A stretch of DNA of 64,000 bases from Thermoanaerobaculia bacterium (GCA_963664405.1 OY761158.1:5024001-5088000); one strand, 5' to 3'; shown: positions 20,811-33,645, counted from the first letter of the stretch. Notes: a model not told the origin generated them from the letters alone. Numbers and translations: made by a program.

Positions 20811-23282
20811 ATGAAGCAAGCTCTGTTCATTCTGTTGTTCGTCACTCCCCATGCCTGGGCCCAACAATCGGGGACATTCCGCTTTGAGGACGTCGGCTCG
20901 CGGAATCTGCCCCCTGCGGAGATCGCCGGCGAGGTAGAGAGCGAGCGAGTCAGCCCGCCCGAGATGACCGGCGACTGGCCCTCGATCGCCTCCGCGCCTG
21001 ACGGCGGTGCCTGGATCGCCTGGGTCGAATGGGACGCCGCCAAGAGCGACCGTGTCGTGGTGCGCCATCGCGACGCAAGCGGAAGCTGGGGCGAGCTCAT
21101 CGAGATCCGCGACGGTCATTGGGATCATTATCTGCCGGCCATCGTCGCCACCCCGAGCGGGGCGCTGGTCGCCTGGTCGGCGCAGGTCGACGGTGGCTAC
21201 GACCTCTTCGCCACCACCGTCTCGAACAGCAGCGAAGTCGGAAGGATCGAGACCCTCTCGTCGATGGAACACGGCGACTTCCACGTTCGCCTGGCCGCCG
21301 ACTCGAGGGGTCGTGTCACCGCCGTCTGGCAGTCCTTCGGCAACCGCAACGCCGACATCTACGCTCGCAGGCTCACTGACGGCGTCTGGGGACCGAGCGT
21401 TCGCATCTCGACTTCGAGCGCCTCCGACTGGGAGCCCTCGCTGGACCTCGACTCCAGCGGTAGAGCGTGGATCTCATGGGACACCTACCACGCGGGGAAC
21501 TACGACGTTCTGCTTGCATCCTTCGACGGCCAGAGTGCCGGGGAGCCTGTTCCCATCGCAACCGGTGCCGAGGCACAGTTCCACTCGAGTGTGGCGGTCG
21601 ACGCGATCGATCGCATCTGGGTGGGCTATGACACCGCCGGCCGCAACTGGGGCAAGGACTTCTCCACTTCGGGAGGCGTCGAGGGTAGCGAGGGTCTCCA
21701 TGCCCGACGGGGTCTGGGCGTCCGCGTCTACAAGAACGGCAGGGTCTTCGAGCCGCAGGCGGATGTCCGCGACATTCTGACCGGCCGTATGAGCATCTTC
21801 GCCGAGCTGCCTACGATCTCGATCGACGGCAAAGGGTCGACCTGGTTGATCTTCCGCCATTGGACCCTCGAGAAGCCTCACGAGATGTACCACGTCTACG
21901 CGACCCGACTCGCCGAGAACGGATGGACGACACCGGTACGACTCACCAACAGCGCGGGACGCAACACGCAGCACACCTCGGTCGCGACTCAGCCTGATGG
22001 CTCGCTTGTGGCGGCGTATGCGAGCGACCTGCGCTCCCCTGAGAACCTGCCTCGAAGCCAGTCCCACTCTCTGCACTACAACGTCTTCGTCGCGGAGTTG
22101 GAGGCTGGGTCGGCAGGTGGAGGCCCCGCGCTCGAAGAGGTGGAAGTAGCGGCACCGGTTGCCGGCTTCGAAGTACGCCAGCGGGCGAAGATGACGGTCG
22201 ACGGCAAGACCTACACTCTGCTCCTCGGTGACTGCCACCGGCATACCGACATCCGGGGCCACTCGGGATTCGACGCCTCGACCGAGGACACCTATCGTTA
22301 CGCCATTGACGCCGCACAGCTCGACTACGTCGGCCCCAGCGACCACAACGCCGTGGTCGGCGGGCGGTGGCCCGACGGTCTGCGCGACTACAGCTGGTGG
22401 TATCAACAAAAGCTGGTCGATGTCTACAGCCATGAGCCGCGCTTTTGGGGGATTTACACCTACGAGCATTCGATGGTACGTCCCGGAGGTCACCGCAACG
22501 TCCTATTGTTGAAGCGAGGCGCTCCTTTGCGTCCGATCGATCGCGAAAAGGGCCTCGACGCGCCAGACAACTCTCCGCCGGTTCTCTGGGACTGGGCGAG
22601 GAAAAACGTGCTCACCCAGCAGGGGCAGAAGATGGTGATCGTCCCTCATACTTTCGCCTCAGGTCCCCTGGCCGACTGGAACTGGCAGAACCCGGAGTTC
22701 GACTGTCTGCTCGAGATCTACCAGGGCGCCCGCGGCAGCTTCGAGCGGTGGCGCCTACCCAAGACCGAGCTCCGCGGCGTAACCCAGACCGACGACCCGG
22801 GCCACTTCGCCGTGGACGCTCTCGACAAGGGCAATATCTATGGCTTCGTATCCTTCAGCGATCACGGCTCTACCCACAACTCGTGGGCTGCCATCTGGGC
22901 CGTCGAAGAGACTCGAGAGGCTCTCTTCGACGCCATGCTGGCGCGCCGCACTTACGCTGCCACTGACGAGATCATCCTCAAGGTGTCCGCCGACGGCCAC
23001 AATATGGGCGAGCAGTTCGTTACCGCCGTCGAGAGGCCGCTCGAGATCTCGATCGACATCGAAGCCCTCGACGAGATCCTTCGGGTCGACGTCATCAAGA
23101 ACGGAGAGTACGTCTACACCCAACGGCCTGGAGGTCGAAGCGCACAGCTGTCCTACCGCGACTCGACACCCGCCGCCGGCGACAGCTACTACTACGTGCG
23201 GGTCTTTCAGCGCGATCCCGACAACCCGTCGGGCGATCCCGAGATCGCCTGGGGCTCGCCATTCTTCGTGAAGTACGAGTAG
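20811..23282 (+). CDS. Exported protein: beta-propeller repeats plus PHP-like/DUF3604-type metallohydrolase domain
   Basis: Signal peptide; GDCHRHT, SDH, YE, GHRNV, PH, FSDH.S, RRTYAAT, YYYVRV.Q, AWGSP. Confidence 0.8.
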   Translation: MKQALFILLFVTPHAWAQQSGTFRFEDVGSRNLPPAEIAGEVESERVSPPEMTGDWPSIASAPDGGAWIAWVEWDAAKSDRVVVRHRDASGSWGELIEIRDGHWDHYLPAIVATPSGALVAWSAQVDGGYDLFATTVSNSSEVGRIETLSSMEHGDFHVRLAADSRGRVTAVWQSFGNRNADIYARRLTDGVWGPSVRISTSSASDWEPSLDLDSSGRAWISWDTYHAGNYDVLLASFDGQSAGEPVPIATGAEAQFHSSVAVDAIDRIWVGYDTAGRNWGKDFSTSGGVEGSEGLHARRGLGVRVYKNGRVFEPQADVRDILTGRMSIFAELPTISIDGKGSTWLIFRHWTLEKPHEMYHVYATRLAENGWTTPVRLTNSAGRNTQHTSVATQPDGSLVAAYASDLRSPENLPRSQSHSLHYNVFVAELEAGSAGGGPALEEVEVAAPVAGFEVRQRAKMTVDGKTYTLLLGDCHRHTDIRGHSGFDASTEDTYRYAIDAAQLDYVGPSDHNAVVGGRWPDGLRDYSWWYQQKLVDVYSHEPRFWGIYTYEHSMVRPGGHRNVLLLKRGAPLRPIDREKGLDAPDNSPPVLWDWARKNVLTQQGQKMVIVPHTFASGPLADWNWQNPEFDCLLEIYQGARGSFERWRLPKTELRGVTQTDDPGHFAVDALDKGNIYGFVSFSDHGSTHNSWAAIWAVEETREALFDAMLARRTYAATDEIILKVSADGHNMGEQFVTAVERPLEISIDIEALDEILRVDVIKNGEYVYTQRPGGRSAQLSYRDSTPAAGDSYYYVRVFQRDPDNPSGDPEIAWGSPFFVKYE

Positions 23283-23288
23283 CTCCGA

Positions 23289-23530
23289 CTACGGAAGCGG
23301 CGTCGCCACCCGCGGATCGTTGACCCCCATGTGGTCGAGAATGGCCTCGAAGCGGGGCTCGGGGCGCAGGTTGTCTAGCCAGGGATGGACCTTCGTCCAT
23401 AGAATCAGGCCGCCCTTCTGGGCTAAGGCCTCCTCCAGCCAGTGCAGGGCAGGCTCCCTGTCGTCGAGCCAGGCATAGAGAAGTGCCAGGTTGTAGGGGT
23501 GGGCTTCGCCGGCCTTCACCCGAGGCAACC
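23289..23530 (-). pseudogene. C-terminal TPR fragment (type seen on kinase/adenylate cyclase proteins)
   Basis: PYNLALLYAWL.DRE.AL.WLE.A......L.W.KVHP.LD.LR.EPRF.AIL..MG. Confidence 0.65.
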
Positions 23531-23657
23531 GCCTCTCAGCCAGCCAGCGGAAGACGGCGACCCGATGATGCGATCCACGAGCGGCAGATCCACCTGCAGA
23601 GGCTGGAGCAGCCAGAGCAGGCGGAAGAAATGGGTCGGATCTACGAGTCGGAAGGAG

Positions 23658-24196
23658 GGACTGGAACGAAGGCAACCATTACTCCCGCAACGACAACGAC
23701 CCCCACCTCACGGGCTTCGGCGGCGTCGAGGTTTCAACCGGGATTGTCAATCCCACCAGTGGCCCCCTGTGGTACGGGACCCATAGAGTGGCAGCGGGAC
23801 TACATCGTCAACGTCATCGGCATGAAGCGCTGGGTGTTCGGCAAGCATGACGTCATGACCAGTGCTGCCGTGCATGCGGCCGCCGGCGAGCAATGGGGAT
23901 TGCAGCCCTCCACCCAGGTTGCGCACCCGGAGTCCGGCCAGACCATCAACACTTTCACCTTCCGCGAGCAGAGAGGCACCAACCAGCTCGAGGACTTCTG
24001 GACGCTCAACCTGAATGCCACCTACCAGTTCCCGATCAGCGGTGGGGTGCAGGGAATTATCGGCGGCGAGGCTGCAAACGTCACCAACGAGCAGTCTCTG
24101 ATTCGGATCAACATCAGGAACGGCCGACCTAGAACCGGCCTCGACACTTTCCAGTTCACGCGGGAGTATCGCCTCAAGCTCGGTATCCGATTCTGA
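23658..24196 (+). pseudogene. Silent 3' cassette / truncated paralog of TonB-dependent receptor 28036-30726
   Basis: Aligns to 30189-30726; +1 G near 23778; no 5' part or start codon. Confidence 0.9.
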
Positions 24197-24231
24197 GCAC
24201 GTCGAAGCACGATCGGCTTAGCTGAGATTGC

Positions 24232-24269
24232 AAAACACCGGCGGCTTCGGCCGCCGGTGTTTTTCTTTT
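24232..24269 (+). terminator. Rho-independent terminator (paralog of 30762-30796)
   Basis: AAAACACCGGCGG-cttcgg-CCGCCGGTGTTTT followed by T-run. Confidence 0.85.
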
Positions 24270-24442
24270 GTACCGGGAAGCAGGCGACCGAAACCGACGG
24301 CCTTCCCGGGATCCGGGTTGCTGAGGTTGCCTTCCGAGTTCAGGTAGGGGAGCACCGAGAAATCGCGCTCGAAGGTGCGCGCCATTTCCACCTGCCACTC
24401 CGACTGGCCACCCGAGTACTCGTAGGCGTGGAACGATGTCTG

Positions 24443-25750
24443 TCAGTTGATCAAACGTAGAGCATCAACCGCCCACCCGAGATCAAAAGATTCCCCATCC
24501 CAATCGGGAAGCCCGCTCGAATCATCGACCTTGATCCCCTGCCGCTCGAGGAGGCGCAGCAGCAGCTCCAAGGGCTCACCCGCCAAGATTGGCGCCGCCG
24601 GCGCCTGCAGCATCGGTCGACCATCTGGCCAGTAGAAAGAGACCTCGCCTTCCGCGAGCTTCATCGAGAAGCCCTCCTCATGAACGGCTCTGTGATGGCG
24701 CCGACACAGTAGTACAAGGTTGTCGAGGCGAGTTTCTCCGCCGTGGGCCCAGTGTTCGATGTGATGCGCCTCGCAGAACTTGGACTGGCACCCGGGAAAG
24801 CGGCAGATCTGGTCTCTGGCATTCAAAGCACGGCGGATGGCGGGTGAGATGGTGCGTGTTTTTCGCCCAACGTCGAGGACCGTGCCGTCTCGTGCATGCC
24901 GAACCACCACTTTGCCGGCGTCGCACGCCAGCCGCTGAGACGTTCCCGCGGGAACGTGCTGCCCGTCCTCGAGCACAGAAACGCCTGAGGCTCTTTCATC
25001 CGCCAGCGTCTCGGCATCCACGTGCACGACCACCTGATAGCGATCGCCCGAAGTGCCCCGGTCGAGCTCGTGCGCGAGTGCGCTCTCGGCGAGAAGCTGG
25101 AGCGCGTCGGCCCGTCGCTGACCGATGGGGATCTCGGCCTTCTCCTCGGCCGATTCGTAGAGAGCTTCCGAAGCCGACTCCAACGCCCGCATCACCACCG
25201 CACCCGCCTCGGCATCGAGACGCCCCCTCACCACCAGCATGCCGTCCTCGTCGAAGAAGGCATCGAGCGATCGGCTCGCATGTCTTCGCTGCTCTTCTTC
25301 CTTATCCGCGATCCGATCGACCCGTCGCCACGCCCGCACCAGCCTCTCGACATGCGCGGCGCTCCCGCTGCGAGCAAAGGCGAGGAGCTCTTCTTCGTTC
25401 TCCGGCGTGGCAACCCGCGTGAGCGCCCGCACCTTCGAGTACGACAGCTCGCCTCGGCTCATCGACTCACTGAGAAGCGGCAGCTCGCCCAGCGCATGGG
25501 CAACGCGAACCTTCTCGCGCGCGGCCCCGAGGGCAAGGCCGGTGCGCCAGTTGAGCCAGTGGGCACAAGAGGCGAAGCCGACGTTCCAACCGCCGCGATC
25601 GTCGAATTGGCGAATCAGTACCAGAAGGCAGTAGTTCGCCGCCTGAATGCGGGCGGAGAGCTCTGCGATCTGTTCGCCGAGATCTTCGACTGGGCACTCG
25701 GGAAGGGGCGGAACCGGGTTGAGCGATAGGGTAGAGGGCTCTTGTCTCAT
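24443..25750 (-). CDS. DUF222 (13E12-repeat) HNH endonuclease
   Basis: SCAHWLNWR.G, G.LSYSKVRALTR, QRRADAL, RLACDA, RALNARD..CRFPGC....CEAHHI.HW..GG.T.LDNLVLLC.RHH. Confidence 0.9.
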   Translation of the reverse strand: MRQEPSTLSLNPVPPLPECPVEDLGEQIAELSARIQAANYCLLVLIRQFDDRGGWNVGFASCAHWLNWRTGLALGAAREKVRVAHALGELPLLSESMSRGELSYSKVRALTRVATPENEEELLAFARSGSAAHVERLVRAWRRVDRIADKEEEQRRHASRSLDAFFDEDGMLVVRGRLDAEAGAVVMRALESASEALYESAEEKAEIPIGQRRADALQLLAESALAHELDRGTSGDRYQVVVHVDAETLADERASGVSVLEDGQHVPAGTSQRLACDAGKVVVRHARDGTVLDVGRKTRTISPAIRRALNARDQICRFPGCQSKFCEAHHIEHWAHGGETRLDNLVLLCRRHHRAVHEEGFSMKLAEGEVSFYWPDGRPMLQAPAAPILAGEPLELLLRLLERQGIKVDDSSGLPDWDGESFDLGWAVDALRLIN

Positions 25751-26065
25751 TGGTCTCTCCAGGTCGATACAACAATCATAAACCCTGTTTTTCGAGACGT
25801 TTGAAGCCCTCTTGAGGCGGCGAATGCGGGCCGATCGAGGGCCAAGTCCTCGCCTCTTCTTCGAACGCGCCGCACAGGTGAATATAGAGGCTCTGTGGCC
25901 AGCTCAAGACGCGACATAGGACTCGGGGCGGAGTGGCCTGAAAGACCTTGTCAAGGGGATTCGGAAGAAAAGTCGAAAAAGTTTCCGACTGCGTTTCTCA
26001 ATCCCTGAGTGCAACCATCTCGCCGCGAATCATCGTCCAGATGCTCTCGTTACGGCCGCGAAGAC

Positions 26066-26096
26066 ATTCGGCTGGCACCCAAGCAGCCGAAGGCTG
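26066..26096 (-). repeat. Family A end motif
   Basis: Reverse complement CAGCCTTCGGCTGCTTGGGTGCCAGCCGAAT. Confidence 0.7.
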
Positions 26097-26097
26097 C

Positions 26098-26225
26098 GGG
26101 TTCTGTGAGCGCCGGTCGGTGGTGTCGAGATCGGTCGGGGGCTCACCGGTCTCAGCGGCCAATTGTCGCTTGCCGCGCGCCGCGTTCGAGTAGAAGCCCC
26201 AGTAACGTATGAGCTGCCCGACAGA
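26098..26225 (-). pseudogene. IS91-family (HUH/Y2) transposase C-terminal remnant
   Basis: QLIRYWGFYSNAARGKR resembles the IS91-family IRYxGxYSNxxRGKR segment. Confidence 0.6.
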
Positions 26226-26443
26226 TTGCCTGAATATTCTCGGTGCCGAGGTCAATTTCAAACAGTTATCAGGTGGGTCGAGGTTCACCTTTCCTCCGTA
26301 CCCAAAACGCCATCGTATCCAATTCATTGAATTCTGATTCAATTTTCGATATCGCCGTTCGGCCAAAAGCACAATATATAGTATCTCCGACCTTCTTACA
26401 CACAATATGTAGTTGGTATGATTTTTGCGTCTAAGACATGTTA

Positions 26444-26503
26444 GAGATCGTTAGTAATTTGAGATCGTTAGTAATCTGAGATCGTTAGTAATCTGTGTAT
26501 ACT
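26444..26503 (+). promoter_or_regulatory. 3 x 17-bp tandem repeat overlapping a putative sigma70 promoter
   Basis: GAGATCGTTAGTAAT(T/C)T x3 (26444-26494), then TATACT at 26498-26503; AT-rich context. Confidence 0.55.
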
Positions 26504-26520
26504 GCATGTCTGTTCGTCGT

Positions 26521-27884
26521 GGATGTGTCCCGTTTTTTGTGGAAATGGGTTCAGGCGTAGTCCTCCGAGTCGTCTTTTGCTAAATCCTACCGTTTACGCG
26601 GCCCTCTCAACCTCGAGCAGGAGCTGAAGCGCCCGGTAGCCGTTAATCCTTCGCAGGTGTATCTGCCCGAAGGCGACGAGCCCCCAGAGGAGCGTGACGC
26701 CGGCAGCCTCGGTGGCAAAGGAGCCCTGGGTTTTAGTGCGGCGACGAAACTCGCGGTTCAGGTTCTCCAGAGCGTTGGTCGTGCGCACCGAACTCCACAG
26801 CGATTTGGGGAGCTCGTAGAAGGTCAGTAGCTGGAACCCTGCCTCCTCAAGGCTGCGAGCCACCGCCGGGACTAGTCGCGACCACTTGGTGACGAACGCC
26901 GCGTAGGCCTTGCGGGCCTGTGCCGCGTCCTCGGCTCGTACGATCGAGTGCCAGTCACGCCGCAGCTCGTCGTGTGCGTGCACCGGGCAGTGTTTCTTCA
27001 GATTCTCCCACTTGTGTTGGACGCAGCGCTGGACTTTGACCTCAGGCCAAGCCTTCAGCGCCGCGGCCAGCCCTTTGTGGCCATCCGTGACCAGGTAGCG
27101 CGGAGCCTGAAGACCTCGGGCCTTCAGATCCTCGATCAGCCACTTCCAGTGCTCGGCGGCCTCGCTCGCGGCTAAACGTAAGGCCACCAGCACCTTGGTG
27201 CCGTCCGGAGTCACACCCAGCACCACCAGCACCGGTACCGAGACCACTCGACGGGCCAAGCGGACCTTCAGGTGAAAGCCATCGAGAAACAGAAGCACGT
27301 AGGACTCCTCCGACAGATCGCGCTCACTCCAGCGAGCAAAAAGCTCCTTCAGCCGAGACACCACACGCGAAACTGCGCTCTTGGACAGGTGCTCCTCACC
27401 CAGCAGCGGAGCCAATGCCTTCTTGATCCGGCGGCTGTTAGCGCCAGCCAGATACGCACCCAGGATCGCGTCATCGACCTCCTGCGTACGACGAGCGTAA
27501 CGCGGCACGATCGCACTGCGAAACTCTACGCTGGCCCCATCCTCGCCGACTAGCCGTCCTCGTGGAATGTCCAGTTCCTTCGACCCACACGCCGTCGTGA
27601 TCAGACGACGCTGCTTGCCGTTGCGATAGCCCGCACGCTCGCCTGAACGCTCGTAGGCGCTGCAGCCCAGCGCCTCGGACAGCTCTTCCTCGAGTGTGAT
27701 CTCGATCGCCGCACGAACACGCTCGCGTAACAACGAACGAATGTCCTGACGGAAGCGTGCAGCTTCCCCTTCCTCGTTGATATTCTCCACCATGGCGTAA
27801 TCCTCCGTTCGCCCTAACCGGCGATGTGTTTGACCACTAGGAGGTTACGCCATTCTCAATTTCCACAGCATTCGGGACGGATCC
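26521..27884 (-). mobile_element. Complete IS256-family insertion sequence
   Basis: Imperfect 26-bp IRs GGATGTGTCCCGTTTTTTGTGGAAAT / GGATCCGTCCCGAATGCTGTGGAAAT; 8-bp TSD TTCGTCGT at 26513-26520 and 27885-27892. Confidence 0.95.
26594..27793 (-). CDS. IS256-family (Mutator) DDE transposase
   Basis: YRNG, IPR.R, LFLDG, TDGH.GL, QRC.QH, RTTNALENLNREFRRRTK. Confidence 0.95.
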   Translation of the reverse strand: MVENINEEGEAARFRQDIRSLLRERVRAAIEITLEEELSEALGCSAYERSGERAGYRNGKQRRLITTACGSKELDIPRGRLVGEDGASVEFRSAIVPRYARRTQEVDDAILGAYLAGANSRRIKKALAPLLGEEHLSKSAVSRVVSRLKELFARWSERDLSEESYVLLFLDGFHLKVRLARRVVSVPVLVVLGVTPDGTKVLVALRLAASEAAEHWKWLIEDLKARGLQAPRYLVTDGHKGLAAALKAWPEVKVQRCVQHKWENLKKHCPVHAHDELRRDWHSIVRAEDAAQARKAYAAFVTKWSRLVPAVARSLEEAGFQLLTFYELPKSLWSSVRTTNALENLNREFRRRTKTQGSFATEAAGVTLLWGLVAFGQIHLRRINGYRALQLLLEVERAA

Positions 27885-28035
27885 TTCGTCGTCAACCACC
27901 GCCAAGTAGGCACAGTGTGTCTTTAGATAGGGAGAGTCTCTAGACAAGTTAGCAGTTTCCATCGCGCGGCCCGGCGGCGGCCTTCCACAGGAGACCCCGA
28001 TTCAACCGGGTCGCAAGACTCTGGAGGAAAGCATC

Positions 28036-30726
28036 GTGAAAGCCACCGCCCTTAGGTCTTCTATTTGGATCATCGCCATCGCCGCTTCCGCGTTGCCACT
28101 TCTGGCCGACGGCCCGCAGACATCGACCATCGACGGCACCGTAACCGACGCCCAGGGTGGCGGCCTGCCCGGCGTCACCGTGACTCTTACCGGCCCTCAG
28201 AACCCGAGGACCGAGATCACCAACGCCGACGGCGACTATCGCTTCGCCCTTCTCCAGGCGGGTACCTACAACGTCACCGCCAACCTCGAGGGCCTGGGCT
28301 CAGCCGAGCACGCAGTCGTCCTCGACCCGGGGCGGCGCCAGGACGTCGACCTCACGCTCGGGACCGCCACTGCCGAGACCATCACCGTCACCTCCGAGGC
28401 GGCGCTGATCTCGAAGTACGACACCGGCGCCACCACCACCCTCGGGGCAGAGACGCTCGAGCACGCCCCGCAAGCCCAGCGTAACTACTGGTCGAACATG
28501 AGGATGATGGCCGGTGTGGTGTCACAAAACCAGGAATTCGATCAGGGACCCGGGGTCAACGGTGGCAACGCCCAAGAGAACGCCGTCTTCATCGACGGCG
28601 TCGACATCTCCCACAATCGTCGCGGCGGCGAGCTCACCTTCTATATGCCGTCGACCGTGATCGCCGAGAACAAGATGGAATCCGCCGGTTTCGACGCCGA
28701 GTACGGCCGAGGGATCAGCGGGGTGCTGAACACGACGATCAAGACCGGCACCAACAATTTCCACGGCGACTTCCTCTATATCGGCCAGAACCCGGCATGG
28801 CGCGCCGAGAACTGGCTCGGTCACGACCGCCCGGACGATCAGATCCACAGCTTCGAGACCTCGCTCGGTGGCCCGCTGTGGCGCGACAAGGCCTGGTTCT
28901 TCGCCTCCTACAACCAAATGAATGACAACAATCTCGACCAGATTGCTGACGGCACGGTGATCAACACGAACCGCGAATCGAACCCGATGATCGGCAAGTT
29001 CAACACCCAGCCTTCGAGCCGACACCAGCTTACGTTTACCTTTATCGACTCCCCGTCGGCCCGGGAAAACCCACCCGGGACAGCCCAGGACATCTACTCG
29101 CTCACCAACAGTTCGTGGAATAACAGGGTCGAGACCCTGACCTGGAGCTTCGCCATGACCAACTCGGCGTTCCTCGAGGTCAAGGCCGCCCAACGCGACC
29201 TCAACACCGGGCGCAATGGTTCCCCGCCAGCCCCGATCATTCCGGGCGCTTCCATTGACTCACCCGACGGCAACGACTTTCGCTACCGCGATCTCGCCAC
29301 CGCTTTTCGCTACAACGCTCCCTCGTTTCGCCTGGGGTCTGGGGGCAACGACTTTCCGCGCGATCAGGCGAATGGCTCGGTGACCTACTTCAAGGGCAAC
29401 CACGAGCTCAAGGGCGGCATCGACCTCCAGGACATCACTTTTGCGGTGTCGACAACCATCGGGCAGGAGTATTTCGGCAGCGGCTACGGCCGCAGCCTAC
29501 CCGGTGGCTTCGAGAGTCCGAGCGACAAACGGGTCTACGACTGCCCAACCCCTTGCATCACCGCTTACACTACTTTTTTGACTGCCGCCTATGTCCAGGA
29601 CCGAATCACGGTCGGTGACAAGCTCACCTTCCACCTCGGCCTACGCCAGGACACCCAGGACATCGACAACAATCTCGGCCAGCAGGTCATGTCCTACGAC
29701 AAGGTGGTGCCGCGCCTATCGGCGGTCTACGACATCAACGCCGACGGCAAGATGCTGGTGCGGTTTTCCGCCGGGCGCTACTTAGACTTTATCGGCCTCG
29801 GTGTCGTCTTCACGGAGTTCACCTCGGGCGCCAATGGTGAGAATGTATACACCCAGTACTCGTGGAATCCCGCGACGGAGCTCTACGATATCTTTCAGCG
29901 CCGCATCGAGGCCCGTGAACCCCTGGACTCCCAAGTCAACCCCTTCTACAAGGACGAGATCTCGGTGGGCTTCGACTGGCAGTTCGCCGACAACTGGGTC
30001 TTCACCTCGCGCGTGACCAAGTGGGAGATGGATAACATGTTCCACGCCAGCCAGCAGTTCGACGAGCAGGGCCAGGTCGTTCGCGACCTGAGAAACTGGC
30101 CGCAGAACCAACGCGACTACGAGGGCATCTTGTTCCAGGTCAACCGTGCGTTTCGCAACAACTGGTCGCTGCGGATGAACTTCTCGAAGGACTGGAACGA
30201 AGGCAACCATTACTCCCGCAACGACAACGACCCCCACCTATGGGGCCTAGGCGGCGTCGAGGTTTCAACCGGGATTGTCAATCCCACCAGTGGCCCCCTG
30301 TGGTACGGACCCATAGAGTGGCAGCGGGACTACATCGCCAACGTCATCGGCATGAAGCGCTGGGTGTTCGGCAAGCATGACGTCATGACCAGTGCTGCCG
30401 TGCATGCGGCCTCCGGCGAGACCTGGGGATTGCAGCCCCCCACCAGGGTTGCGCACCCGGTGTCCGGCGAGACCCTGAGGGTTTTCACCTTCCGCGAGCA
30501 GAGAGGCACCCAGCAGCTCGAGGACTTCTTCACGCTCAACTTGAATGCCACCTACCAGTTCCCGATCACGGGTGGGGTGCAGGGAATTATCGGCGGCGAG
30601 GCTGCAAACGTCACCAACGAGCAGGTTCTGGTTCGGATCAACACCAGGAACGGCCGACAAAGAACTAGCCTCAACGCTTTCCAGTTGACGCGGGAGTATC
30701 GCCTCAAGCTCGGTATCCGATTCTGA
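28036..30726 (+). CDS. TonB-dependent receptor (Oar-like, N-terminal carboxypeptidase-regulatory-like domain)
   Basis: Signal peptide; GTVTD.QG..LPGVTVT; plug FIDGVD, AEYGR..SGV.N..IKTGTNNFHG; LGGPL.RDKAWFF; C-terminal LGIRF; GGAGG RBS. Confidence 0.92.
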   Translation: MKATALRSSIWIIAIAASALPLLADGPQTSTIDGTVTDAQGGGLPGVTVTLTGPQNPRTEITNADGDYRFALLQAGTYNVTANLEGLGSAEHAVVLDPGRRQDVDLTLGTATAETITVTSEAALISKYDTGATTTLGAETLEHAPQAQRNYWSNMRMMAGVVSQNQEFDQGPGVNGGNAQENAVFIDGVDISHNRRGGELTFYMPSTVIAENKMESAGFDAEYGRGISGVLNTTIKTGTNNFHGDFLYIGQNPAWRAENWLGHDRPDDQIHSFETSLGGPLWRDKAWFFASYNQMNDNNLDQIADGTVINTNRESNPMIGKFNTQPSSRHQLTFTFIDSPSARENPPGTAQDIYSLTNSSWNNRVETLTWSFAMTNSAFLEVKAAQRDLNTGRNGSPPAPIIPGASIDSPDGNDFRYRDLATAFRYNAPSFRLGSGGNDFPRDQANGSVTYFKGNHELKGGIDLQDITFAVSTTIGQEYFGSGYGRSLPGGFESPSDKRVYDCPTPCITAYTTFLTAAYVQDRITVGDKLTFHLGLRQDTQDIDNNLGQQVMSYDKVVPRLSAVYDINADGKMLVRFSAGRYLDFIGLGVVFTEFTSGANGENVYTQYSWNPATELYDIFQRRIEAREPLDSQVNPFYKDEISVGFDWQFADNWVFTSRVTKWEMDNMFHASQQFDEQGQVVRDLRNWPQNQRDYEGILFQVNRAFRNNWSLRMNFSKDWNEGNHYSRNDNDPHLWGLGGVEVSTGIVNPTSGPLWYGPIEWQRDYIANVIGMKRWVFGKHDVMTSAAVHAASGETWGLQPPTRVAHPVSGETLRVFTFREQRGTQQLEDFFTLNLNATYQFPITGGVQGIIGGEAANVTNEQVLVRINTRNGRQRTSLNAFQLTREYRLKLGIRF

Positions 30727-30761
30727 GCACGTCGAAGCACGATCGGCTTAGCTGAGATCCC

Positions 30762-30796
30762 AAAACACCGGCGGGCGACCGCCGGTGTTTTTCTTT
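30762..30796 (+). terminator. Rho-independent terminator
   Basis: AAAACACCGGCGG-gcga-CCGCCGGTGTTTT followed by T-run. Confidence 0.85.
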
Positions 30797-31022
30797 GGTC
30801 CTTCGGGTAGAAGTGCAAGCCGCTGGTGGACTGGTCTAGTGGTGCATGTTGACCTGTACTCTGATTGACGAGAGAGGGGGATTAGTGTCCTGGAAAAAAG
30901 GAGCGCTCGGGTCTGGACCTTCAGGCGCGGTTGGTGTCCGCGCTGCGAAAGGTGAAGCGGCGACGAGACCTCGATCGGCACGCTCTTGCCCGTATCCGTT
31001 TGGGCTCTGCTAGGGTACTCGG

Positions 31023-32831
31023 ATGCGATCTAAAAGATTCGGCTGCGGTCTCCTGGCTCCCCTCTCTATCGCGGCGCTCCTCCTCGGGGGGTGCCTGAGC
31101 GAACCCAGGAAGAGCTCGGCATCGAAGTCGTTCTACGATCCCACCGCCGATCCGGCAGCCAACCCCGCTTCGCTCTTCGAGCCGCTCACCGAGGCCGAGA
31201 GGTATCGAGCCGATACCGACGCGACCCTGACCCGCTACGCGCTCGACAAGCCGACTTCGCTCAACCCTCTCTTCATCGGAGCCTGGGCCGACAGCTACCT
31301 CTATGAGCTTCTCTTCGATCCGGTGGCGCATCGCAACTCGGAGCTGCGCGCGGTCTGGAACCCCAACGTCGTCGACGAGGTCGAGGAGCTCGAAGGCGGC
31401 CTCATCCACCGCGTGCATCTGCATCCCTTTCTGAAGTGGCACGACGGCGAGCCCTTCACCGCCCACGATGTCCGATTCACCTACGAAGCCATCTCCGACG
31501 ACAGCGTCCCCGCTCTCGACGCCAAGTACAAGATCTCGGAGATCGACGACATCCGCGTCCTCGACGATCACACCTTCGAGGTCCACCATCGCCAGGTCAC
31601 GGCACTTGCGGTCGACAATATGTACTTCCCCACCCTCCCGAAGCACCTTCTCGACAACCCCGAGGAGCGCGCCAAAGACCCCACCATGCGCTCGAGCACC
31701 TTTTTCAACCGCTACAAGCGGGAGCTGGCTATCGGCAACGGCCCCTACCGCTTCGTCGAGTGGATCGAGGGCGACCGCGTGGTGGTGGAGCGCTGGGAGG
31801 AATATCCCTTCACCAAGCCGCCGATAAAGCGCCAGGTGATCACCAGCCAGCCCGACCGTAATACCGCCCTGCTCCAGTTCCGTCAGGGCAATCTCGACGA
31901 CATCTGGCTCACCGTGCAACAGCACGGCAGCCAGACCAACGACGAGGAGTTCCGCGAGGTCGGCGTCAAGGCCTGGAAGCCGCGCTGGATGCAGGCTTAC
32001 ATCGGCTGGGACAAGAGTGGCAAGACCCCCTTCTTCACCGACAAGCGGGTACGCCAGGCGATGGCCCACGCTTACGACCGCGACCGCGTCCTGCGCACCG
32101 TGACCTGGGATCTCTACACTCCGTCGAACGGCATGTTCGGCCCCACCCACTGGGCTCACAACCCCGACATCGAGATCCTCGACTACGACCCCGACAGAGC
32201 GGCGGCCCTCCTCGACGAGGCCGGCTGGCTGACCGACCCCGACGATGGCTGGCGCTACAAGACGATCGACGGCGAGCGGGTGAAGTTCCACTTCACCCTG
32301 AACATCTCCCAGGCCTTCGTCGACGCCCGACGCTTCGCCGACATCTATCGCGATGACCTGCGTCGCATTGGCGTTTCCTTCGACACCGTGATCCAGGAAA
32401 ACGCCAGCCGAAATAAGATGATGGTCGAGCACGAGTATGTCGCCCACGTCGAGACCTACCAGGTGTTCGCCGACCCTGACGTCTGGCGCAACATCTTCCA
32501 CACTGACGCGATCGACAACGGGCGCAACTACGACAGCTACTCCAACCCCGAGGTCGACGACCTCTTCGATCGCTCCCGCCTCGAGCTCGACCGTGACAAG
32601 CGGGCTGCTCTCTTTCGCCAGATCCAGCGGCTGATCTACGAAGATCAGGTCTGTCTCTGGATGTGGGAGTACAGCACCACCTGGGGCTTCTCCAAGCGGC
32701 TGCGAGGCGTCGAGCTCGCGCCCTCCGGAGTCACCGCATTCCGACCCGGCACTCACAACTGGTGGATCGAGAAGCCTGGGGCGTTGGCGATGCCTCCAGA
32801 GGGCCAGAGCCCGACCGGCGCTTCTCGCTGA
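31023..32831 (+). CDS. ABC transporter substrate-binding lipoprotein, family 5 (peptide/nickel)
   Basis: LGGC lipobox; KWHDGEPFTA.DV.FT, GNGPYRF.EW, D.RVRQA.AHA.DR, YSNPEVD.L; no permease genes nearby. Confidence 0.9.
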   Translation: MRSKRFGCGLLAPLSIAALLLGGCLSEPRKSSASKSFYDPTADPAANPASLFEPLTEAERYRADTDATLTRYALDKPTSLNPLFIGAWADSYLYELLFDPVAHRNSELRAVWNPNVVDEVEELEGGLIHRVHLHPFLKWHDGEPFTAHDVRFTYEAISDDSVPALDAKYKISEIDDIRVLDDHTFEVHHRQVTALAVDNMYFPTLPKHLLDNPEERAKDPTMRSSTFFNRYKRELAIGNGPYRFVEWIEGDRVVVERWEEYPFTKPPIKRQVITSQPDRNTALLQFRQGNLDDIWLTVQQHGSQTNDEEFREVGVKAWKPRWMQAYIGWDKSGKTPFFTDKRVRQAMAHAYDRDRVLRTVTWDLYTPSNGMFGPTHWAHNPDIEILDYDPDRAAALLDEAGWLTDPDDGWRYKTIDGERVKFHFTLNISQAFVDARRFADIYRDDLRRIGVSFDTVIQENASRNKMMVEHEYVAHVETYQVFADPDVWRNIFHTDAIDNGRNYDSYSNPEVDDLFDRSRLELDRDKRAALFRQIQRLIYEDQVCLWMWEYSTTWGFSKRLRGVELAPSGVTAFRPGTHNWWIEKPGALAMPPEGQSPTGASR

Positions 32832-32840
32832 GGAGGCCCC

Positions 32841-33091
32841 CTGACGTCCGCGGGCGATCCACTGCGCTTCTACTTCGATTACATCTCGAACAACGCCTAC
32901 ATCGCCTGGACGCAGCTTCCGCGCCTGGAAAAGGAGTACGGCGTTACCGTCGAGCCGATTCCGGTTCTCTTCGCCGGGCTCCTCAATGCCCACGGCCAGG
33001 TCGGTCCGGCCGAGGTGCGACCGAAGGCGAGGTGGATGGGGCGAAACGTCATGCGCAAGGCCGCGATTCTGGGCGTGCCGCTGCAGCCACC
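32841..33091 (+). pseudogene. 2-hydroxychromene-2-carboxylate isomerase / DsbA-like, 3'-truncated
   Basis: LRFYFDYISNNAYIAW...PVLFAGLL.AHGQ.GPAEV.PK..W......R.A..LGVPL.PP; not in ORF track; ends at TGT of the family B repeat. Confidence 0.75.
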
Positions 33092-33241
33092 TGTGGGGGG
33101 CGAAAACCCCATTTGTCTCACGCAGCGAGTCGGCGGCGGTATCGATCGTGTGTCCATAACCACACGTCGGCTCGGCCCGGCTCGCTCGGCCCGGCTCGCT
33201 GCCGAGTTGCCCTGCACTCCTGACAATCGAGCTCGAGGTTC
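33092..33241. mobile_element. Family B repeat (second copy, with 14-bp internal duplication)
   Basis: Near-identical to 17364-17499. Confidence 0.7.
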
Positions 33242-33249
33242 CCGTCTCG

Positions 33250-33645
33250 TCAATCTGTCGAAAAGCCCTGAAGCTTCGAGTGCTGTGCCAGCAGGTCGAA
33301 GTGCGCATCCCGATGAAGGAGGCGCGCGTTGGCGAGGATCGTAGAGGCTGCGATTATCAGGTCGGTGGCTGGAATGGTGAGCCCTAGCCGCCGAAGCTGA
33401 AATCCGAGATCGGTGGCGAGATCAAAATCTGGAGGCCCGAGGTCGAGCCAGTGGAAACCCTGAAAATCCGCCTCCAGTTGCCGACGCTCCGAGTCCCCTG
33501 ACGCGTAGGAGCAGATCTCAACCTGGATGACGCCGTTGACAGCGACCTGATCCGCGGCGATCACGTTTGCAACGGCATCCTGGACGCTCCGCAAACCGGA
33601 GCTCCGGTAGTACTCTATGAAAGCCGAGCTATCCACGACGATCAT
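33250..33645 (-). CDS. vapC: VapC PIN-domain toxin
   Basis: MIVVDSS.FI, G.TIPATDLIIAA, LLH.D.HF. Confidence 0.9.
   Translation of the reverse strand: MIVVDSSAFIEYYRSSGLRSVQDAVANVIAADQVAVNGVIQVEICSYASGDSERRQLEADFQGFHWLDLGPPDFDLATDLGFQLRRLGLTIPATDLIIAASTILANARLLHRDAHFDLLAQHSKLQGFSTD

Follow-up and report, generated by a model that had tools for sequence, protein, structure and literature searches.

A 3' fragment of a TonB-dependent receptor gene beside an intact paralog in a Thermoanaerobaculia genome: probable remnant of a fast-diverging receptor group

The stretch of DNA analysed here, a 64,000-nucleotide window of the genome of a Thermoanaerobaculia bacterium (GCA_963664405.1, OY761158.1:5024001-5088000), contains on its plus strand an intact gene for a TonB-dependent receptor (I, 28036-30726) and, to the left of it, a fragment that corresponds to the 3' end of such a gene (F, 23655-24196). 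A full-length paralog (P) is located elsewhere in the genome, which consists of one contig of 6.78 Mb; positions on this contig carry the prefix C1, and all others are those of the window. The question addressed here is what F represents, and our answer, to which we assign a probability of about two in three, is that F is a dead remnant, namely the 3' end of a third gene from a young group of rapidly diverging receptor paralogs, and not a purpose-built cassette. The segments 23655-24271 and 30186-30799 share 92.2% identity over 617 nt (blastn), which covers the last 179 receptor codons and the terminator, and a repeat search resolved them into two adjoining direct repeats, 23777-24076/30307-30606 (92%) and 23655-23777/30186-30308 (95%), at spacings of 6530 and 6531 nt. 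On the left, the homology has an abrupt start within the coding sequence, at receptor codon 718 (inside codon 717/718), next to unrelated sequence. On the right, it extends past the stop codon and the 3' hairpin and stops a few bases beyond a strong terminator in both copies; F, I and P all lose homology at the same point just past the terminator. The hairpin and terminator (24197-24271 and 30727-30799) are conserved among the three copies, with compensating changes in the terminator loop region, and they recur with 84% identity at C1:1717864-1717933, where no receptor match adjoins them.

Over the 179 shared codons, F and I differ at 40 nucleotides. The amino acid is changed in 24 codons, three further codons differ synonymously, and two or three bases are changed in 12 codons. 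In addition, F has a single extra G at about 23776-23778 (GGG versus GG in I), which could be an assembly error, like the indels in the sibling genes mentioned below. The differences are tightly clustered, since 20 of the 43 gaps between neighbouring differences are at most 3 nt long, a degree of clustering reached in 0 of 10,000 random placements. A previous reading of the window, made from its sequence alone (hereafter the sequence-only reading), had described the duplicated receptor tail with its terminator, the clustering of the changes in patches, and a DUF222-HNH gene between the copies (24443-25750, minus strand). Our analysis confirms these descriptions, and the peptide strings it gave for the patches match the translation; its three synonymous changes and one extra base also hold, whereas the amino-acid-changing codons number 24 and not 23.

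An alignment of F, I and P (609 columns) has 85 polymorphic columns, of which 41 are specific to P, 27 to I and 14 to F, while three differ in all three copies. With P as the outgroup, private changes are about twice as numerous in I as in F (27 versus 14; relative-rate p 0.042), and the I branch carries 19 non-synonymous and one synonymous codons against six and one on the F branch. Judged from these sequence comparisons, most of the differences between F and I appear to have arisen on the I side; nearest-genus orthologs (73-75% identity) mostly agree with F and P at the I-specific sites. Along the alignment, blocks of I-specific sites alternate with blocks of F-specific ones (runs test p 0.0024). 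The Nei-Gojobori ratio of non-synonymous to synonymous rates (omega, or dN/dS) for F versus I is 1.59, based on 6.5 synonymous and 33.5 non-synonymous differences, and does not exceed 1 significantly (p 0.15 for nucleotides, 0.10 for codons; loops alone 1.81, p 0.16).

The paralog P (C1:869807-872494, minus strand) lies 4.2 Mb from I, to which it is 91% identical at the DNA level and 84.5% identical at the protein level. Both genes encode 896 amino acids, and they differ at 241 nucleotides and 139 of the 896 residues without any indel or stop codon. When 241 changes were placed randomly on I, a stop codon resulted in 99.95% of the simulations, which argues that I and P have been kept open by selection. 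Omega between I and P is 1.22 overall and 3.0 in the plug (residues 130-242, p 0.038). As a baseline, receptor orthologs among five Ca. Multivorans genomes gave values of 0.13-0.25 at similar dS, and in-genome paralogs of the DUF3604 and HNH genes gave 0.13-0.16. Other receptor pairs also show high values, namely 0.66 at a dS of 0.017 for C1:6007689/898705 and 0.65-0.92 for two more distant pairs, and for one receptor pair of the genome (C1:1634048/1269211) omega is only 0.12. The surplus of amino-acid changes is a feature of the paralog group in its entirety and not of the F/I pair alone. The receptor pair C1:1667271-1669961/1682855-1685206, whose members are about 15 kb apart, has a dN/dS of 0.92 at a dS of 0.13, and an N-terminal receptor fragment is present near it, at C1:1680569-1681027. 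Fast divergence after duplication may be general for this receptor family.

In Pfam searches, receptor I matched OMP_b-brl_4 (3.2e-22) and TonB_dep_Rec_b-barrel (2.8e-6; 27.9 bits at a cutoff of 27), together with Plug at a value below the cutoff (0.002). Structure prediction for I with AlphaFold2, from 92 sequences, gave a model with a predicted local distance difference test score (pLDDT) of 88.5 and a predicted template modelling score (pTM) of 0.85. Foldseek searches with this model returned 298 PDB chains at E <= 0.001, with FusA (4zgv, E 4.3e-33) as the first match and YddB as the next, and each match listed among the top 49 ranks was an outer-membrane transporter of the TonB-dependent type (one SusC and two ButCD included). 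The last strand ends in an aromatic residue (...LKLG[IV]RF) in I, P, F and all 16 alleles considered below. By its modelled plug-in-barrel fold and this C-terminal aromatic, I is predicted to be a TonB-dependent transporter.

The C-terminal strand of such barrels ends in the periplasm. Strands of the model were counted back from this strand, and connections of two residues were taken as periplasmic turns. With this topology, 20 of the 24 residues that differ between F and I fall in the predicted extracellular loops L9-L11, which together account for 110 of the 179 positions (binomial p 0.019; Fisher p 0.013), and three of the remaining four lie at outer strand ends. For the differences between I and P over the whole barrel, a crude split into strand and coil gave no enrichment (67/402 versus 48/252). 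Plugs are usually conserved. The plug of I differs from that of P at 22 of 113 residues, and most of these differences are located in residues 144-200 (window 28465-28635). This plug variation may reflect a change of ligand rather than phage escape alone.

Sequences from other assemblies place F within a set of variable alleles. A protein collection contained 16 distinct full-length, 896-residue members of the group, in addition to split and partial ones, and the tests for mosaicism were carried out on these amino-acid data only. The states T736, Q796, E809, N826 and W832, which seemed private to F, recur in alleles P0011, P0124 and P0122; hence, the states of F are not the result of decay. 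Over the 179 residues, F differs from P0124 at 10 positions, from P0011 at 11, from P0122 and P0127 at 18 and from P0133 at 19, as compared to 24 for I and 27 for P. The I-type L10 patch is found in identical form in P0126, and the F-type and I-type patch variants combine in almost every way among the alleles. Among 248 informative columns of the 16 alleles, 28% of the column pairs are incompatible, some of them only 1-13 residues apart, and a permutation test of the PHI (pairwise homoplasy index) type on the same alleles gave an observed value of 0.170 against 0.289 +/- 0.006, with 0 of 1000 permutations as low. A clear switch is seen in P0001, which equals P0127 over residues 1-450 and nearly equals P0004 over residues 601-896 (0 and 2 differences in two segments). 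P0001 and P0127 differ at 50 of the last 179 residues and are both recorded on a contig of 1,971,430 bases; if they share one genome, the two copies in that genome have a common head but alternative tails. The records suggest that sibling genomes contain three full copies each, P0122, P0126 and P0133 in one case (179,311-base contig) and P0001, P0127 and P0132 in the other (1,971,430-base contig). Several sibling genes (P0129+P0130, P0136+P0139, P0137+P0011 and P0125) were called as two open reading frames (ORFs) or with out-of-frame tails, and these could be either real frameshifted pseudogenes or the result of long-read indel errors. A search of genome contigs for DNA of the sibling allele P0011 gave 38 pattern matches and no relative, and a conserved 27-mer was not found in metagenome contigs and was found in genome contigs only in six records of more distant Acidobacteriota metagenome-assembled genomes.

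Exchange between copies has also occurred in the genome studied here. Within codons 1-143, I and P differ at two residues and at no synonymous site, against 11.2 synonymous differences expected (P 1.4e-5), whereas 11-12 residues of the same region separate each of them from the foreign allele closest to it. The 5' ends of I and P, 4.2 Mb apart, have therefore been homogenised, which shows gene conversion between I and P in this genome.

The sequence to the left of F provides evidence of another kind. It contains the last ~87 codons of a 592-amino-acid regulator gene, which is truncated and not a complete gene, followed by a 90-nt inverted piece of the same gene, and F starts 7 nt beyond this piece. 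A full paralog of the regulator is present at C1:5113838-5115616; it has Trans_reg_C and TPR domains and is oriented divergently from another receptor paralog, at a distance of 483 bp. The beheaded regulator tail and the inverted scrap that adjoin F indicate that F sits at a rearrangement junction, and since the tails of the regulator and of F are head to head with the scrap between them, the rearrangement would have removed the 5' parts of both genes. Such a layout is the signature of a rearrangement, unlike that of a maintained cassette. In the other assemblies of the protein collection, no fragment ORF with the same junction was found. In three genomes of the nearest genus, none of five proteins (DUF3604 protein, regulator fragment, full regulator, HNH protein and the product of the ORF at 30921-33308) was encoded within 20 kb of the receptor ortholog, and consequently the ancestral layout is not readable from these relatives.

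Read-derived contigs support both F and its borders. Between 63 and 83% of the words sampled from 23000-31000 occur in each of six public runs; Logan contigs of four runs (two studies, at most three samples) were aligned to 23000-30150, i.e. to a stretch without the tail of I itself, and runs X1-X7, which contain a share of only 0.05-0.08 of the words and come from metagenomes of marine sediment and sponges, were left out. Contig joints with sides of 20-25 letters (e.g. 23370>26124) were counted as noise, and contigs without the extra G at 23776 were not assignable to F, because F and I are identical there. The left border of F is spanned by a 3034-nt contig that covers 23000-23687 with 0 differences in three of the four runs, and by a 181-nt contig (23484-23664) in the fourth, while at the right border contigs that start at 24216 (three runs) or 24199 (fourth run) extend into the HNH gene. 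In all four runs, contigs also join a full-length receptor body (up to 30147), via 38 letters, to sequence that fits F from 23655 onwards. The 38 joining letters match neither I nor P exactly and fit the P0133 type, and the depth of these contigs is 14-27 as compared to about 8-13 for strain-specific flanks. As the aligned stretch lacks the tail of I, these contigs show an F-like tail on the full gene of co-occurring relatives and not an I/F hybrid of this strain, and no such hybrid could be demonstrated in the short contigs of the four runs. Over the receptor regions, the summed contig depths are 46-285, against 8-13 at the unique flanks.

A DNA search of the genome gave 11 matches, of which only F, I and P reach at least 90% identity; the next ones (74%) are inside full-length genes. 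Homology to the receptor C-terminus is found at 20 genomic loci: 16 of these end ORFs of at least 823 amino acids, two are in broken genes, one is an orphan with 41% identity, and one is F. F is thus the sole close orphan fragment of a receptor C-terminus in the 6.78-Mb genome, and neither the DNA search nor the C-terminus search revealed a cassette array or several promoterless cassettes in it. The more distant orphan (C1:6337709-6338080, minus strand) is a 123-amino-acid ORF that matches residues 799-896 of I and has no receptor body. The genome was also searched for donors of the patches specific to I, F and P by means of 259 distinct 12-mers, each containing at least two lineage-specific bases, and this gave scattered chance matches, none of them at a homologous receptor position.

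Table 1. Position, strand and characteristics of the features at the locus (window coordinates)
Feature	Position	Strand	Characteristics
DUF3604 protein gene	20811..23282	+	Pfam
3' remnant of Trans_reg_C + TPR regulator gene	23289..23558	-	residues 494-580 of the 592-aa full paralog; tblastn 65% identity to C1:5115317-5115574
Inverted 90-nt piece of the same regulator gene	23558..23647	.	blastn 72% identity over 90 nt, E 2e-10, to C1:5115212-5115301, strand opposite to the adjacent remnant
Fragment F (final 179 receptor codons)	23655..24196	+	no start, lacks the 5' 717 codons, one extra G at about 23776-23778
Duplicated 3' untranslated hairpin and intrinsic terminator of F	24197..24271	+	stem 24232-24263; folding -37.6 kcal/mol, z -4.8
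DUF222-HNH gene (24443-25750) plus about 260 nt upstream, multi-copy unit	24443..26008	-	Pfam DUF222 2.2e-28, HNH 1.3e-8
Native upstream region of I	26218..26520	+	promoter-like sites 26395-26422 and 26476-26503; 17-bp tandem repeat 26444-26495
IS256-family insertion sequence, 1364 bp	26521..27884	-	Pfam Transposase_mut 2.2e-87; NCBIfam transpos_IS256 295.7 bits (cutoff 150)
Intact receptor gene I, 896 aa	28036..30726	+	CarboxypepD_reg domain, plug, TonB-dependent beta-barrel (Pfam)
Part of I duplicated as F, with terminator 30762-30791	30186..30799	+	encodes strands 17-22 and loops L9 (724-766), L10 (793-830) and L11 (858-886)

The segment between F and I (Table 1) contains the DUF222-HNH gene, the upstream region of I and an insertion sequence (IS). 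The DUF222-HNH family has three full copies in the genome, with 91-92% amino-acid identity and an omega of 0.13-0.16, plus fragments; copies and fragments are located at C1 2447015-2448582, 4849522-4851061 and 4851381-4864711, with a cluster of fragments near 4.85-4.86 Mb. The encoded protein weakly matches the NCBIfam model of the HNH part of IscB, at a score far under the cutoff. The flanks of the other copies are unrelated to those in the window. The HNH gene was considered as the agent of the duplication and rejected, because the other copies have no adjoining gene-end fragments and the flanks in the window are unique.

The upstream region of I is homologous to that of P, with 381 identities over 470 positions after removal of the IS, and the P upstream sequence matches 26218-26456. 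A 17-bp unit, GAGATCGTTAGTAATCT, is present in 3.1 copies upstream of I (26444-26495) and once upstream of P; the repeat could be a regulator-binding or a slippage site. The IS has the features of the IS256 family, i.e. an IS256-type transposase, imperfect terminal inverted repeats and an 8-bp target duplication, TTCGTCGT, at 26513-20 and 27885-92, and its target site is single-copy at P. It is inserted between the promoter-like region and I, at a distance of 151 nt from the receptor start codon, and its transposase is encoded on the other strand. The genome contains 11 near-identical transposase copies of this family (at least 99.5% amino-acid identity; 10 of the 11 at 100% or 99.7% to the window copy), which argues that the insertion is recent. 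It may silence or re-wire gene I.

Taken together, the recurrence of F residues in full-length genes and the contigs with F-like tails make it most likely that F is the remnant of a third paralog, and that this paralog is still intact elsewhere, in relatives. The events that led to the present layout may have been as follows. Regulator and receptor genes would have been arranged divergently, followed by a second receptor gene (I) in tandem, and a complex rearrangement, comprising a deletion of ~4 kb and an inversion of 90 nt, would then have removed the 5' parts of the regulator and of the first receptor gene and left the two 3' ends head to head. F and I would represent two established variants of hypervariable surface patches, mainly in the extracellular loops L10 and L11, which would explain why their differences are patchy and mostly amino-acid-changing. 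These patches may be under diversifying selection, imposed by phages or bacteriocins or by a shift of substrate, and a limited set of patch types would be reshuffled in short tracts by homologous recombination or gene conversion among paralogs and strains. We infer the order of events, the selective agent and the non-expression of F. Because conversion between copies does occur, F may occasionally act as a donor, at most a passive one.

Several points weigh against the view that F is such a remnant. The last loop of F (866-884) is of the P or ancestral type and not of the P0011 type, so that F itself is either mosaic or an early branch. The alternating blocks of I-specific and F-specific sites would be equally expected if F and I had exchanged tracts. 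A single divergent regulator-receptor pair backs the proposed ancestral layout, and the link to a third paralog is drawn from protein sequences and short Logan contigs. The runs may include the source of the assembly itself, in which case the support for the junction is not independent; moreover, since the aligned stretch ended at 30150, the tails of full-length alleles were forced onto F, and the F-like tail is a match of at least 94% and not an identity. Finally, the loop topology is based on a model prediction and on parity counted from the C-terminus rather than on coordinates.

The main alternative is that F is a silent donor, from which, as from P, short tracts are converted into the expressed receptor, either opportunistically or as a selected reservoir. 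This would be in line with the ectopic conversion evident at the 5' ends of I and P, with the position of F and I as direct repeats 6.5 kb apart that share long identical tracts, and with the alternating blocks described above, and the longest runs of concordant sites slightly exceed expectation (F-I p 0.039, F-P p 0.011). The mixing of F-type and I-type patches in nearly all combinations among the alleles, with incompatible sites at close distance, points in the same direction. We nevertheless regard this possibility as unlikely, as F is a single fragment and not part of an array, is flanked by rearrangement debris, and has its own stop codon and terminator as well as an extra base. In addition, the patches that distinguish I are missing from F and from the rest of the genome in the 12-mer search, and hence this reservoir did not supply the I allele as it is now; nor did the other assemblies contain a fragment ORF with this junction, or the contigs an I/F hybrid of this strain. 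We are just as doubtful about a broader version, according to which the receptor paralogs and leftover fragments such as F form an in-genome library whose loop and plug-apex tracts are copied into the expressed copy. If it were true, the locus would amount to a low-grade equivalent of surface variation by cassettes, one that is not programmed, it would answer the question of where the hypervariable regions of mosaic outer-membrane receptors originate, and the recent IS256 insertion between promoter and I might switch the expressed copy.

It is also conceivable, albeit improbable, that a mobile or foreign segment carrying the HNH gene, the upstream region and I entered the tail of a resident receptor gene by recombination, with F as the displaced resident 3' end. 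F and I indeed flank a segment with two mobile-type genes, homology ends at one and the same point after the terminator in each of the three copies, and synteny with the nearest genus is absent. The geometry is wrong, however, because integration is expected to leave the complete gene to the left of the element and the displaced fragment to the right, which is the reverse of what is seen; furthermore, the IS256 element is a separate and very recent insertion with its own 8-bp duplication, the borders of the HNH unit exclude the repeat, and no integrase or att-like structure was seen. Plain neutral decay, which would make F a pseudogene whose surplus of amino-acid changes arose by chance, is even less probable. 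Whereas the dN/dS of the pair, for the loops as well, does not differ significantly from 1 and F is frameshifted and has no start, it is the branch of the intact gene that carries more changes (27, against 14 for F), the residues unique to F are common to full-length alleles, 12 of the 27 changed codons contain two or three changes, and the differences are clustered. The polarised counts and the allele comparison largely refute this view. Least probable of all is an artefact of assembly or polishing, in the form of a collapsed or chimeric copy from co-occurring strains. The depths over the receptor regions indicate that several related alleles co-occur, which could confuse an assembler, but contigs cover the left border, with 0 differences in three of the four runs, and in all four runs the right border into the HNH gene.

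With regard to interpretation, the sequence-only reading had proposed diversifying selection or a cassette reservoir for receptor variation. Its idea of diversified surface loops is borne out by the enrichment of the changed residues in the predicted extracellular loops of the barrel model (20/24, p 0.019), mosaic alleles do exist (0/1000 in the PHI-type test; the switch in P0001), and the fragment has read support, as contigs cover both of its borders in four runs. The dN/dS of the pair, which it had put forward as a check, does not differ significantly from 1. The cassette reservoir was not supported, in view of the lack of a further close cassette in the genome, the position of F at a rearrangement junction and the failure to find this junction in other assemblies, and no role emerged for the HNH gene, a member of a multi-copy family whose other copies have unrelated flanks. 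The IS256 element (26521-27884), the full-length paralog P and the truncated regulator gene left of F had not been mentioned in it. Should there be no exchange among the copies, the locus would also be a warning that many amino-acid changes in a repeat do not by themselves point to a cassette system.

How does this locus compare with known systems? As in diversity-generating retroelements, a template-like repeat is present near the end of a variable gene, and the differences are mostly non-synonymous. Such an element can be excluded, because the substitutions involve all four bases and are not adenine-specific (ATC>CTG, CAG>AGG, CCT>CAA, TTC>CTA), and no reverse transcriptase domain was found among the eight neighbouring ORFs scanned against Pfam. 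Silent-cassette antigenic variation is known from pilE/pilS of Neisseria and vlsE of Borrelia. The locus shares with these systems a promoterless partial copy near a full gene, patches of amino-acid changes and conversion between copies in the genome. Unlike pilS and vls cassettes, F is single, frameshifted, provided with its own stop codon and terminator, and located in rearrangement debris, and no transfer from F into the expressed gene could be demonstrated with the short contigs of the four runs. As to recombination elements of the pilS/vls type, there is no flanking repeat pair at F and no Rfam family (E <= 0.1, 23000-31200), no search dedicated to G-quadruplexes having been made, and the literature searched yielded no description of TonB-dependent receptors that are served by a cassette system. 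In its two truncated genes that stand head to head with an inverted scrap, the locus resembles the remnants of IS-associated or illegitimate deletions, and the genome has 11 IS256-family copies and several broken receptor genes; what differs from IS-associated remnants is that no IS copy is present at the F junction itself.

In Proteobacteria, it is well established that TonB-dependent receptors diversify mainly in their loops and recombine locally. Among the features of mosaic outer-membrane proteins, loop patches are present in the C-terminal third of the receptors studied here (20/24 changes in L9-L11), and so is local recombination among alleles. The overall picture is one of loop hypervariability reshuffled by recombination, a known pattern of outer-membrane receptors, plus a pseudogene relic, and nothing indicates a dedicated cassette system. 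If there is no exchange, F is an ordinary pseudogene relic beside a rapidly evolving surface protein exposed to phages or toxins; if exchange among the copies is true, the locus offers a simple natural model of receptor variation outside pathogens. In the excerpted portions of the respective reports, mosaic evolution with hypervariable regions is described for FhuA of E. coli and Salmonella (PMC12175518), and loop-focused selection for HmbR of Neisseria meningitidis (PMC3068627). As far as these portions go, the receptors share with the group studied here a conserved barrel, patches in the surface loops, a limited number of patch types recombined in short tracts, and positive selection inside the patches; receptors of the FhuA/HmbR type are also known entry points of phages and toxins, which adds to the likeness. 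On the other hand, the group studied here differs from FhuA and HmbR in that its variants are present on two or three paralogs and a fragment in one genome of an uncultured Acidobacteriota member, that whole-gene dN/dS between the intact paralogs is 1.2 and the plug also varies (omega 3.0), and that the receptor is fused to a CarboxypepD_reg domain and has a model resembling FusA and YddB. The survey of E. coli outer-membrane proteins leaves, in its excerpted part, the source of the variable segments open (PMC12175518). Unlike in that part of the survey, candidate sources of the variable regions are visible here on one chromosome of an environmental Acidobacteriota genome that shows the same pattern, in the form of two intact paralogs with homogenised 5' ends and a stranded 3' end.

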